IMG/VR virus record: IMGVR_UViG_2693429549_000013
Direction: 5' to 3' (one strand)
DNA from: a virus
Lineage: Duplodnaviria > Heunggongvirae > Uroviricota > Caudoviricetes
DNA length: 11,242 nucleotides
Of the stretch, positions 1,836-3,242 are shown piece by piece; the stretch's first letter is position 1; the number at the start of each line of letters is the position of its first letter. The position numbers and the translations under genes are program-made. The notes beneath the pieces are model-generated. The model did not search any database. It was not told where the DNA came from and saw only the letters and a program-made list of their open reading frames with translations.

Positions 1836-2033
1836 ATGCTAAAACAGCAGGATATGACAGAAACCGCCAGAGTGGTGTTTAATGAATTAAGCGTTACCGA
1901 ACCGGCGACAGTCGGGGAGATAGCGCAGAATACTTACCTTTCACGCGAACGCTGCCAGTTAATACTGACCCAGCTGGTTATGGCGGGTCTGGCAGACTAT
2001 CAGTTCGGTTGTTACAGACGCCTTCCGCAGTGA
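1836..2033 (+). CDS. small winged-helix protein, PapI/FaeA-like (65 aa)
   Basis: ATG at 1836 preceded by AAGGAAAAG. The segment TVGEIAQNTYLSRERCQLILTQLVMAGLADYQ parallels the PapI/FaeA pattern (TAxEIAxxLxVTxYQARYYLxxLExAG.V) as I recall it. Sits immediately upstream of a DNA methyltransferase gene. Confidence 0.5.
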   Translation: MLKQQDMTETARVVFNELSVTEPATVGEIAQNTYLSRERCQLILTQLVMAGLADYQFGCYRRLPQ

Positions 2034-2045
2034 AGGCTTTTTTAT
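2020..2045 (+). terminator. rho-independent terminator overlapping the stop codon of the small ORF
   Basis: Stem GCCTTC (2020-2025) / GAAGGC (2032-2037), 6-nt loop, then TTTTTTAT. Confidence 0.5.
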
Positions 2046-2060
2046 TTGTGGTAAATGGGC

Positions 2061-2091
2061 GGCTGGTGGGTGTTAGGGGCACCCACCAGCC
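2061..2091 (+). other. perfect 12-bp stem-loop (GGCTGGTGGGTG / CACCCACCAGCC, 7-nt loop) in the methyltransferase 5' leader, no T-tract
   Basis: Inverted repeat read directly from the sequence. A second 7-bp hairpin lies at 2133-2151 (CTGCTTT gcgca AAAGCAG). Possible RNA structure or protein-binding site; function unknown. Confidence 0.4.
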
Positions 2092-2183
2092 ATCTGCTCA
2101 TGCGTTGGGTTCACAAGCAAACCTCAGGCCCACTGCTTTGCGCAAAAGCAGAATGAGCCTATCAGAGACAGGCTTAATGATCC

Positions 2184-3242
2184 ATGCTTAATACTGTAAA
2201 AATATCCAGTTGTGAGTTAATCAACGCCGACTGCCTGGAATTTATCCGGTCGTTACCCGAAAATTCTGTTGACCTGATAGTCACGGACCCGCCGTACTTT
2301 AAAGTGAAGCCTGAGGGCTGGGATAACCAGTGGAAGGGCGACGATGATTACCTGAAGTGGCTGGACCAGTGTCTGGCGCAGTTCTGGCGGGTGCTGAAAC
2401 CTGCCGGAAGTCTTTACCTGTTCTGTGGTCATCGCCTGGCATCTGATATCGAAATCATGATGCGTGAACGCTTCAGTGTGCTGAACCATATTATCTGGGC
2501 GAAGCCGTCCGGACGCTGGAACGGATGCAACAAGGAAAGCCTGCGGGCGTATTTCCCCGCCACAGAGCGCATTCTGTTCGCGGAACATTATCAGGGGCCG
2601 TATCGTCCGAAAGATGCCGGGTATGCGGCGAAGGGCAGTGCACTGAAACAGCATGTGATGGCCCCGCTGATTTCTTACTTTCGTGATGCGCGAGCTGCCC
2701 TGGGGATAACGGCAAAACAGATTGCAGATGCCACAGGAAAGAAAAACATGGTGTCGCACTGGTTCAGTGCCGGTCAGTGGCAGTTGCCGAATGAAAGCGA
2801 TTATCTGAAATTACAGGCGCTGTTTGCCCGGGTGGCAGAAGAGAAGCATCGGCGTGGTGAACTGGAAAAGCTCCACCACCAGCTGGTGGATACGTATACC
2901 TCACTGAACCGGCAGTATGCGGAGCTGCTGAGTGAATATAAACATCTGCGGCGGTATTTTGGCGTGACGGTGCAGGTGCCGTATACCGATGTGTGGACGC
3001 ATAAACCGGTGCAGTTCTATCCCGGGAAACATCCGTGCGAAAAACCGGCAGAAATGCTGCAGCAGATAATCAGCGCTAGCAGTCGTCCGGGTGACCTGAT
3101 TGCAGATTTTTTCATGGGGTTGGGTTCGACAGTGAAAGCGGCACTGGCGCTCGGGCGTCGTGCAATTGGCGTTGAGCTGGAGACTGAACGTTTTGAGCAG
3201 ACGGTTCGGGAAGTACAGGATTTAGTCAGCCAGAACGGATGA
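2184..3242 (+). CDS. phage orphan DNA methyltransferase (N6-adenine/N4-cytosine, beta-class motif order)
   Basis: 352-aa ORF with the catalytic motif IV DPPY (VTDPPYF) near the N-terminus and the AdoMet-binding motif I (DFFMGLGST) near the C-terminus. No adjacent restriction endonuclease gene. Confidence 0.9.
   Translation: MLNTVKISSCELINADCLEFIRSLPENSVDLIVTDPPYFKVKPEGWDNQWKGDDDYLKWLDQCLAQFWRVLKPAGSLYLFCGHRLASDIEIMMRERFSVLNHIIWAKPSGRWNGCNKESLRAYFPATERILFAEHYQGPYRPKDAGYAAKGSALKQHVMAPLISYFRDARAALGITAKQIADATGKKNMVSHWFSAGQWQLPNESDYLKLQALFARVAEEKHRRGELEKLHHQLVDTYTSLNRQYAELLSEYKHLRRYFGVTVQVPYTDVWTHKPVQFYPGKHPCEKPAEMLQQIISASSRPGDLIADFFMGLGSTVKAALALGRRAIGVELETERFEQTVREVQDLVSQNG

Follow-up and report, generated by a model that had tools for sequence, protein, structure and literature searches.

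Does a short open reading frame (ORF) lying directly upstream of a phage DNA methyltransferase gene belong functionally to that gene and, if so, in what capacity? The question is raised by a locus in an 11,242-nucleotide stretch of a Caudoviricetes virus (IMG/VR record IMGVR_UViG_2693429549_000013; hereafter the window, meaning the whole stretch analysed), where the initial annotation saw, by eye, a PapI/FaeA-like regulator paired with an orphan methylase in an epigenetic switch. The observed features were borne out in part: both ORFs are present at the coordinates given, the small one directly upstream of the methylase, whereas the likeness to PapI/FaeA was not confirmed. Taken as a whole, the interpretation as a PapI/FaeA switch fails, but the pairing of the small gene with the methylase holds.

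Layout and linkage of the locus

The features of the locus are the following.

790-1611: Q gene (PF03589, 6.2e-55)
1617-1645, + strand: putative late promoter pR', read from the sequence (TTGATT, 16-17 nt, TGgTAAATT extended -10)
1692-1718, + strand: intrinsic terminator, tR'-like, ahead of the cassette (7-bp G+C-rich stem and T-run)
1776-1813, + strand: invariant upstream box, CTTGCTG-N15-17-C(A/C)AGAGTTAT(C/T)-TGT(A/G)TGTCAC
1836-2033, + strand: 65-aa winged-helix ORF (ATG start with GGA 7-9 nt upstream; stop TGA at 2031-2033)
2020-2045, + strand: terminator-like hairpin (2020-2037) followed by the T-run TTTTTTATTT, overlapping the stop codon of the small ORF
2043-2186, + strand: predicted leader RNA of the methylase (model R1; conservation, pair counts, covariance model)
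2061-2072/2080-2091, + strand: perfect 12-bp inverted repeat, GGCTGGTGGGTG/CACCCACCAGCC, with a 7-nt loop
2184-3242, + strand: 352-aa methyltransferase ORF (ORF call, PF01555)

The putative pR' lies just downstream of the Q gene and scored under the scan threshold; it may be the late promoter of the window's Q type, and would then be context outside the cassette. A hairpin with a T-run occupies the tR' position in nearly all loci, its sequence varying with Q type, and homology to phages with other Q genes starts at this tR'-like terminator (query position 93). The terminator and perfect 12-bp stem-loop said to separate the two genes are real as hairpins, but by itself the terminator scan does not exceed chance (5 sites vs 2.2±1.7 expected), so that the significance of the hairpins comes from their conservation and covariation across loci. 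The arms of the hairpin at the stop codon covary (GCCTTC/GAAGGC, GCTGCC/GGCGGC, GCCTCCC/GGGAGGC and others); many loci have only a weak T-run here, and Providencia lacks the hairpin.

The box ahead of the small gene is conserved in 23 of 23 diverse aligned loci, regardless of Q type, small-ORF allele or genus, and is a candidate promoter or operator of the cassette. It matches sigma-70 promoters poorly (TTGCTG-17-TATTGG) and has no clear dyad symmetry; inspection by eye for sigma-70, sigma-54, sigma-32 or boxA-like sites gave nothing convincing. In the accessible part of a transcription-start map of a related Stx2 phage, start sites in this region are given only for StxS and a tRNA promoter.

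The pairing suspected in the initial annotation is real, and stronger than proposed. At 33 of 37 loci the small ORF is intact and a full-length methylase lies behind it, across a spacer of 142-154 nt; among these linked loci, identity goes down to 59% for the methylase and to about 41% for the small protein. When loci were found through the leader, both genes were present in 70 of 76 IMG/VR loci; when the search started from the methylase, the small ORF was present in 76 of 77, and a scripted test detected both genes in 75 of these 77, the exceptions being one assembly join and one variant leader. The apparent exception L171, in which the methylase is identical but the leader is lacking, proved to be an assembly join with an N in it, and L059 is a chance pattern match missed by the covariance model. 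The small ORF is missing or replaced in 4 of the 76 loci, where the hairpin, leader and intact methylase are kept, so that the small protein is dispensable at least sometimes. No small ORF without the leader was seen in the loci examined; L037, in which no methylase was detected, and L114 both keep it.

The cassette follows Q genes of PF03589, PF06323 and PF06530 as well as the Q-like gene of phiP27, and is carried by prophages across enteric genera, from Escherichia to Providencia and Plesiomonas. We consider it very probable that the small ORF, the leader and the methylase form a functionally linked cassette. DNA similar to the region is present in 3150 of 5426 complete E. coli genomes, and in many Stx phages the region lies just upstream of the Shiga toxin genes. 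Since the cassette is what the Q-antiterminated polymerase transcribes first on its way towards stx, its hairpins and RNA structure could affect toxin expression.

The winged-helix protein and the methylase

The 65-aa protein belongs to phrog_331 and carries the NCBI name 'TrmB family transcriptional regulator'. AlphaFold models it confidently as a winged helix (pLDDT 92.5), with the H1-(strand)-H2-H3 order and the beta-hairpin wing of the winged helix-turn-helix (HTH) superfamily, and by sequence, profile and fold comparisons it is a generic stand-alone winged helix. That the ORF is a genuine gene is shown by 103 close homolog pairs, in which differences at codon positions 1, 2 and 3 numbered 680, 506 and 2714, and 2179 codon changes were synonymous vs 889 non-synonymous. 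It has a Shine-Dalgarno sequence, and its short form (63-67 aa) is kept in all divergent loci. The versions of 93-106 aa found in databases are gene calls extended upstream; in the window, the upstream in-frame ATG at 1716 meets a TAA at 1740.

Within the family, the helix 3 motif RCQLILTQL is nearly invariant (L44, T45 and Q46 entirely so), while outside helix 3 identity falls to about 41%; basic residues are retained in the wing. The window's protein carries a net negative charge, as counted from its sequence, which is unusual for a DNA binder. This acidity, together with the poor sigma-70 match of the upstream box and its lack of a clear dyad, is a point against a regulator model. Another such point is that small-ORF alleles recombine freely with respect to the methylase clades: a small protein of 100% identity accompanies a methylase of 87% in phiP27, and in the Stx2c phage the figures are about 48% and 86%. 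Divergent alleles occupy the same position.

The proposed likeness to PapI/FaeA is confined to the shared helix-turn-helix core. None of 20 diverse family members matched the FaeA profile (PF04703), and the window's protein gave no match at E≤1; PapI, the positive control, scored 6.5e-32 (110 bits). The residues invariant in an alignment of nine FaeA/PapI proteins are absent from the 65-aa family, both those of helix 3 (Y33, Q34, A35, R36, Y38 and L39) and those of the wing (R50, P52, R54, G56, T59 and W61; PapI numbering). Comparison of the two families by hhalign aligned 45 columns of the HTH core at 18% identity with 66% probability, and BLASTP of the 65-aa protein gave E=0.17. We are highly confident that the protein is not a member of FaeA/PapI.

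The methylase is a beta-class N6-adenine methyltransferase (PF01555 at 7.9e-42, residues 29-340), with an N-terminal DPPY motif (residues 35-38, VTDPPYF), a central target-recognition domain and a C-terminal FxGxG motif (FMGLG, in FFMGLGS); its nearest solved relatives are the beta-class enzymes RsrI, CcrM and MboIIA. It is a close ortholog of M.EcoGII, with 92.8% identity over 349 residues to a reference sequence (Supplementary Table S1, PMC11551740) that was machine-read with a few errors, so that true identity may be slightly higher. Its identity to the enzyme of phage 1720a-02, which has been named as very similar to M.EcoGII (PMC5778455), is 95%. M.EcoGII is reported to be a non-specific adenine methylase that also methylates RNA, is silent in the lysogen and is deleterious under constitutive expression (PMC5778455); it is also reported to be fully active when cloned alone (PMC5778455), a further point against a regulator model. 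For the close paralog M.EcoGI, the accessible sections of PMC5778455 do not demonstrate non-specificity. M.EcoGII homologs gave no methylation signal in two STEC lysogens (PMC6602927). Judged by orthology alone, the window's methylase would methylate adenines independently of sequence. No Shine-Dalgarno sequence was found for its gene. The gene family is very common, and M.EcoGII serves as a standard footprinting reagent for chromatin and RNA; in the accessible portions of its literature the enzyme is treated in isolation, and the upstream winged-helix gene and conserved leader are not mentioned.

The predicted leader between the two genes

The spacer is more conserved than either flanking gene, and in the predicted leader RNA it would form five helices: J1 (2056-2060/2128-2132), J2, which is the 12-bp stem (2061-2072/2080-2091), J3 (2093-2102/2112-2121), J4 (2133-2139/2145-2151) and J5 (2153-2160/2170-2177). 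The 3' arm of J5 lies at -14 to -7 from the methylase ATG, and an invariant GATC (2179-2182) stands 1 nt ahead of that ATG. In the pair counts, 82-83% of cells were paired vs 28-44% for slid partners, and 12-15 pairs were changed on both sides vs 2-10 for slid and 6.5-8.5 for shuffled controls, the observed value being reached in 0 of 500 shuffles. One pair is seen as C-G, U-A, A-U and U-G. The minimum free energy is -60.6 kcal/mol (z=-3.8), and the covariance model finds a single copy in the window (133.9 bits). The compensatory changes support a three-way-junction RNA with a competing alternative fold, whose pairings are AUGGGC/GCUCAU and UGUGA/UCACA; these covariation statistics are supportive rather than conclusive, since the sequences are related and the structure was partly derived from the same sequences. 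A structured cis-acting RNA is nevertheless the probable reading of the spacer.

This leader is previously undescribed. Within 1600-2260 no Rfam family was found at gathering thresholds, and the best permissive match, P26, reached 24.2 bits vs a threshold of 36 and lies on the opposite strand; a known RNA family (riboswitch, ribozyme or sRNA) was rejected for lack of an Rfam match. Coding by the spacer (ORF 2009-2191, 60 aa) was likewise rejected, given non-triplet indels and conservation without codon periodicity. The leader would make a new candidate family of cis-regulatory RNAs for phages of enterobacteria.

Proposed control of the methylase, alternatives and known systems

On balance we lean towards a dedicated role for the cassette, as a module that controls or partners the methylase; that the 65-aa protein specifically regulates methylase expression is a more tentative proposal. 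The cassette is a compact three-part unit of lambdoid prophages in Enterobacterales, situated immediately behind the late terminator tR', in the order box, winged-helix gene, stop-codon hairpin/terminator, leader of ~140 nt and methylase without a Shine-Dalgarno sequence. In the lysogen, pR' transcripts would end at tR', the small gene's own hairpin would stop or damp any local transcription, and the folded leader would hold methylase translation low, so that the harmful enzyme would stay off. Upon induction, Q-modified RNA polymerase would pass both terminators and the methylase would be made late, methylating progeny DNA in any sequence context and thereby presumably protecting it from restriction. 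The winged-helix protein would be the dedicated regulator of the cassette, probably acting through its invariant helix 3, with the invariant nucleic acid of the cassette, either the upstream box or the leader, as candidate target. The fold, the exclusion from FaeA, the identity of the methylase, the linkage, the conserved and covarying RNA and the placement behind tR' are results of this analysis, whereas non-specificity, harm under constitutive expression and silence in lysogens come from the literature; we infer the timing logic, the role of the leader and, most of all, what the winged-helix protein binds. That a phage can carry a methylase acting on every adenine, and harmful under constitutive expression, has so far been explained just by silence of the late operon; a dedicated partner protein together with a conserved, structured leader would amount to a specific, testable layer of control.

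The alternative that survives best, though we regard it as unlikely, is that the winged-helix protein is a subunit that directs, restricts or inhibits the methylase, and is not a gene regulator. Stx2a phages offer a precedent: the small winged-HTH protein PNB-2, whose gene directly precedes that of the adenine methyltransferase M.EcoPA8orf6770P and is co-transcribed with it, forms a 1:1 complex with the enzyme and redirects it to 16S rRNA (PMC10810198). The near-obligate linkage of the small ORF to the methylase would suit such a partnership, as would the reported methylation of RNA by M.EcoGII (PMC5778455), and an invariant helix 3 in an acidic protein fits a protein-protein surface. However, PNB-2 is non-homologous (hhalign probability 10%) and its enzyme is of the MT-A70 type, not PF01555; its gene overlaps the methylase by 4 nt, whereas here a hairpin and a 150-nt structured leader intervene. 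The reported full activity of M.EcoGII by itself (PMC5778455), the shuffling of small-ORF alleles against methylase clades and the few loci with an intact methylase and no small ORF also argue against a subunit. If the protein were one, M.EcoGII would owe its promiscuity to being studied as an isolated catalytic subunit.

We find it doubtful that the linkage is positional only, the small gene being an independent moron that regulates host or other phage genes and the leader alone controlling the methylase. The hairpin and terminators flanking the gene and the conserved promoter-like box ahead of it are classic moron architecture, and both the independent recombination of its alleles and the survival of leader and methylase without it in 4 of 76 loci would be expected of a moron. 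Yet the genes co-occur at about 90-99% with a fixed spacer, across genera and whichever of the unrelated Q modules precedes them; mosaic phage genomes would hardly preserve such an arrangement unless the combination were under selection, and in the loci examined, L037 and L114 included, the small ORF never appears without the leader.

A more elaborate version of the control module is likewise speculative: the leader as a two-state RNA switch between a three-way junction and a long hairpin, through mutually exclusive, near-isoenergetic pairings that would respond either to a ligand, for instance SAM or SAH, or to one of the cassette's two proteins, with the winged-helix protein as a physical partner restricting or targeting the enzyme. 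M.EcoGII would then natively be part of a three-component, self-limiting system, and its promiscuity would again reflect the catalytic subunit taken on its own.

Still less probable is that the inverted repeats of the spacer act as DNA, as palindromic operators for the winged-helix protein or another factor. A perfect 12-bp palindrome with a 7-nt centre would suit a dimeric DNA binder, the halves of an operator change together and so mimic covariation, and conservation of the primary sequence is very high. Against this, G-U and U-G pairs are frequent in the stems (at one pair, U-G is seen 13-24 times), and covariation extends over several nested and long-range helices rather than one palindrome; the two arms of J1 are separated by about 70 nt, and in Mixta this helix shows a compensatory G>A/C>U change. 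In 79 of 84 variants, moreover, the + strand forms the more stable 12-bp hairpin; this per-sequence comparison of both strands was used instead of a raw count of G-U vs A-C mismatches over the structure (107 vs 132), which is uninformative since it includes two mostly mismatched positions and a misaligned stem top.

The originally proposed PapI/FaeA-like co-regulator, acting with an orphan methylase in an epigenetic switch for phase variation or lysogen heterogeneity, is very improbable and already largely refuted by the profile tests: a small winged-helix protein, as PapI also is, with an alignable HTH core, does adjoin an adenine methylase, and the invariant GATC precedes its ATG, but only one GATC occurs in 1600-2260 in place of two spaced sites, the small gene is co-directional with the methylase in a Q-dependent late operon downstream of tR' in place of a divergent promoter architecture, and the enzyme is no GATC-specific Dam methylase but an ortholog of M.EcoGII, whose lack of specificity and silence in lysogens prevent it from imposing a heritable, site-specific pattern.

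Compared with known systems, the cassette resembles PapI/FaeA (PF04703) in that both proteins are small, single-domain winged helices of similar length; it differs in profile, invariant residues, genomic context and the non-specificity of its partner methylase. With M.EcoGII and M.EcoGI of E. coli O104:H4 prophages (PMC5778455) the methylase shares the DPPY...FxGxG motif order and the prophage setting, and the enzymes as such show no substantive difference. The C proteins of restriction-modification systems are likewise small HTH proteins encoded upstream of, and co-oriented with, an enzyme whose mistiming is dangerous, and have a conserved sequence box upstream of the regulator gene. Theirs, however, are Xre-type HTH dimers that act on palindromic C-boxes and control a restriction endonuclease, whereas the protein here is a winged helix, the box lacks a clear dyad, an RNA leader is involved and no endonuclease gene occurs among the ORFs or profile matches of the window; the cassette is thus not a C-protein-controlled restriction-modification system. 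In the PNB-2 system, too, the gene of a phage adenine methyltransferase is directly preceded, in the same orientation, by that of a small winged-HTH protein acting together with the enzyme, and there as well an IS element interrupts the methylase in some strains. The window's pair is not that published rRNA-methyltransferase system, from which it differs in locus and families and to which it shows no homology: the PNB-2 catalytic subunit belongs to PF05063 and its overlapping genes lie in the early region near int/xis, whereas the genes of the present cassette are set apart by the hairpin and leader, in the late operon.

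The late-control region

The window represents the late-control region of a prophage of lambdoid, Stx-phage-like type, and the sequence features named in the initial annotation were all found where it had placed them. Its features are:

419-793: RusA
790-1611 (+): Q antiterminator, PF03589 type
3' of Q: promoter-like TTGATT...TGgTAAATT
1692-1718: intrinsic terminator, after the promoter-like site
1776-1813 (+): invariant box, CTTGCTG-N15-17-CAGAGTTAT(C/T)-TGT(A/G)TGTCAC, upstream of the small ORF
1836-2033 (+): small ORF, 65 aa
2020-2045: hairpin and T-run over the small ORF stop codon
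2061-2091: perfect 12-bp stem-loop
2184-3242 (+): methyltransferase, 352 aa, PF01555
3283-3532 and 7340-7589 (+): two identical tRNA triplets (CAT-anticodon tRNA, labelled tRNA-Ile/ileZ in related records; Arg-TCG; Arg-TCT)
4229-4418, 7666-7855 and 8133-8342 (+): STnc100 sRNA copies, downstream of the tRNA clusters
4444-4779 (-): IraM-like anti-adaptor gene (NF007393, 6.5e-47; phrog_4407)
5210-6028 (-): IS600 orfB
6064-6366 (-): IS600 orfA
8565-10418 (+): 617-aa protein with DUF1737, SASA (sialate O-acetylesterase) and DUF6645 domains

In the loci compared, promoter and initial transcribed region differ with the Q type, and a hairpin and T-run close the region. The window's Q also matches, below threshold, the CxxCxGxG zinc-finger domain of DnaJ (1.9e-06; 28.4 bits, cut-off 32.7), which suggests a zinc-ribbon module in Q of this type. 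Three tRNA genes also lie in the late-control region, beside the methylase; just 5' of the first triplet is a promoter-like TTGAAG-17-TATTAT (3245-3273, +), which fits the tRNA promoter that PMC7547250 reports between tR' and stx2. All three STnc100 copies (RF02076) are full-length and, at 124-161 bits, exceed the family's gathering score of 47. The IraM-like gene occupies, within the prophage late region, the position of toxin genes in Stx phages, and the 617-aa protein is of the NanS-p type common downstream of stx.

A 1168-bp duplicate (2378-3545 and 6435-7601, 99.6% identical) provides a second methylase copy (ORF 6382-7299) without the first ~65 codons, the leader and the small ORF. This copy adjoins an IS600 element (~5170-6434, 100% identical to Shigella sonnei plasmid copies). 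The element also cuts short a nanS-p-like 5' fragment (5039-5169; 92% identity with 8564-8694), and it appears to mark the junction of two prophage late regions. The IMG/VR locus L171 (UViG_2671180603_000013), 99.8% identical to window 3979-5080 and joined via N to a window-like 2087-2193, probably reflects a faulty assembly over the duplication, in a genome closely related to the one from which the window comes.

Linkage of the small ORF and the methylase

The pairing of the small ORF with the methylase is real, and stronger than first proposed. Among 37 loci, pooled from phage records, contigs with divergent homologs and one genome per species, 33 carry an intact small ORF followed by a full-length methylase, and the spacer stays at 142-154 nt although the methylase falls to 59% and the small protein to ~41% identity. 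The four exceptions are two truncated methylases, one truncated small ORF and one locus without a detected methylase; in Stx2c phages, where the ORF seemed to be missing at the DNA level, a divergent allele lies at the same position. Both genes were present in 70 of the 76 IMG/VR contigs that were found via a spacer motif and had enough context, and in 75 of 77 when the search began from the methylase (of the two exceptions, one is an assembly join and the other retains the small ORF and has a variant leader). The cassette (box, small ORF, hairpin, leader and methylase) is found downstream of at least four different antiterminator modules. The box, a poor sigma-70 match, is present in every locus compared, irrespective of Q type or genus, directly after the Q-type hairpin and T-run, and is followed by a Shine-Dalgarno sequence and the ATG of the small ORF.

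The small ORF is a real gene. In the window it has a GGA 7-9 nt 5' of its ATG; in 103 close homolog pairs, differences at codon positions 1/2/3 numbered 680/506/2714, and 2179 codon changes were synonymous versus 889 non-synonymous. AlphaFold2 predicts a confident, compact winged helix (pLDDT 92.5; H1-H2-H3 and a beta-hairpin wing). The protein diverges except in helix 3 (RCQLILTQL), which is almost unchanged throughout. This fits an invariant target, for which the box, the leader and a conserved surface of the methylase are candidates. Four of the 76 loci retain hairpin, leader and methylase but have lost the small ORF or carry something else in its place, indicating that the leader belongs to the methylase and that the small protein is not absolutely required. 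In two IMG/VR loci, L066 and L107, the place of the small ORF 5' of the leader is taken by the 3' part of an unrelated gene (product ending in ...ITGLVDTIGN in L066 and ...AILCLVETITD in L107), after which come a hairpin, a normal leader and the methylase.

The leader between the two genes

The spacer is the best-conserved part of the cassette, with long invariant runs from Escherichia to Providencia and Plesiomonas, and had no match in an Rfam search. It looks like a structured RNA of five helices, proposed as:

J1: 2056-2060/2128-2132, closing a three-way junction
J2: the 12-bp stem
J3: 2093-2102/2112-2121
J4: 2133-2139/2145-2151
J5: 2153-2160/2170-2177, its 3' arm at -14 to -7 from the methylase ATG

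When 48 non-redundant leaders were aligned with MAFFT, 82% of cells were paired versus 28-44% with slid partners, and 12 pairs had both-sided changes versus 2-8 slid and 6.5 ± 1.4 shuffled (0 of 500 shuffles reached 12). A model-guided alignment of 61 distinct sequences, which leans to the model because it was fitted to it, gave 83% paired, 15 pairs and 78 doubly changed cells versus 6-24. Both sets of statistics support the structure without being conclusive, because the sequences are related and the structure was partly derived from them. One J3 pair occurs as C-G, U-A, A-U and U-G, and the J1 AUGAGC found only in a Mixta sequence is matched there by GCUCA. For the window's leader the folding energy is -60.6 kcal/mol (z = -3.8). 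In 79 of 84 variants the + strand gives the more stable form of the 12-bp hairpin, which favours RNA over a DNA palindrome.

An alternative fold, pairing UGUGA with UCACA and AUGGGC with GCUCAU (96-100% of cells paired; one-sided, wobble-compatible changes only), is mutually exclusive with J1 and J3, and in the window its energy is almost equal to theirs (-49.8 versus -48.9 kcal/mol). A two-state switch is a possibility.

Methylase identity and proposed control

Judged by its sequence, the methylase is a known enzyme, of another kind than the Pap-switch hypothesis requires: it shares 92.8% identity with M.EcoGII, whose sequence was taken from the supplement of PMC11551740, and 95% with the enzyme of phage 1720a-02, named very similar to M.EcoGII in PMC5778455. 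The same paper describes M.EcoGII as methylating adenine in any context and as silent in the lysogen, attempts at constitutive expression having damaged the cell; two STEC lysogens had methylomes devoid of any signal from M.EcoGII homologs (PMC6602927). An enzyme both non-specific and silent in lysogens is unable to keep a heritable site-specific pattern. Positions 1600-2260 hold a single GATC (2179-2182), invariant in all leaders and ending 1 nt 5' of the methylase ATG. Within the Q-dependent late operon, small gene and methylase share one orientation. A methylation-dependent, Pap-like phase switch, as the initial annotation envisaged, is thus very unlikely, and that mechanism is abandoned as wrong. 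Across the window GATC is strongly depleted (13 sites in 11.2 kb versus ~44 expected from length alone).

Most likely, the cassette is one in which the winged-helix protein and the leader restrain the methylase. It would be a self-contained late-operon unit holding a dangerous enzyme in check. In the lysogen the enzyme would be kept off by the two terminators and the leader fold, and because it lacks a ribosome-binding site (no Shine-Dalgarno sequence precedes the methylase in the leaders compared). Q-modified polymerase would then allow late methylase expression, shielding progeny DNA from restriction.

The methylase is not new. The family of the small protein is uncharacterised, and in the full text of open-access papers we found neither its near-obligate association with M.EcoGII-type enzymes nor the conserved leader described. 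The pair pointed to by the initial annotation is a real, testable module attached to a widely used enzyme: a small partner with a predicted DNA-binding fold beside a phage methylase, accompanied by a candidate new cis-regulatory RNA. The main rival to restraint by protein and leader, that the small protein is a methylase subunit, we consider unlikely. It has a precedent in PNB-2, a small winged-HTH protein of Stx2a phages that joins an MT-A70 methylase in a 1:1 complex, turning its activity to 16S rRNA (PMC10810198); the PNB-2 system and the cassette are, however, analogous, not homologous.
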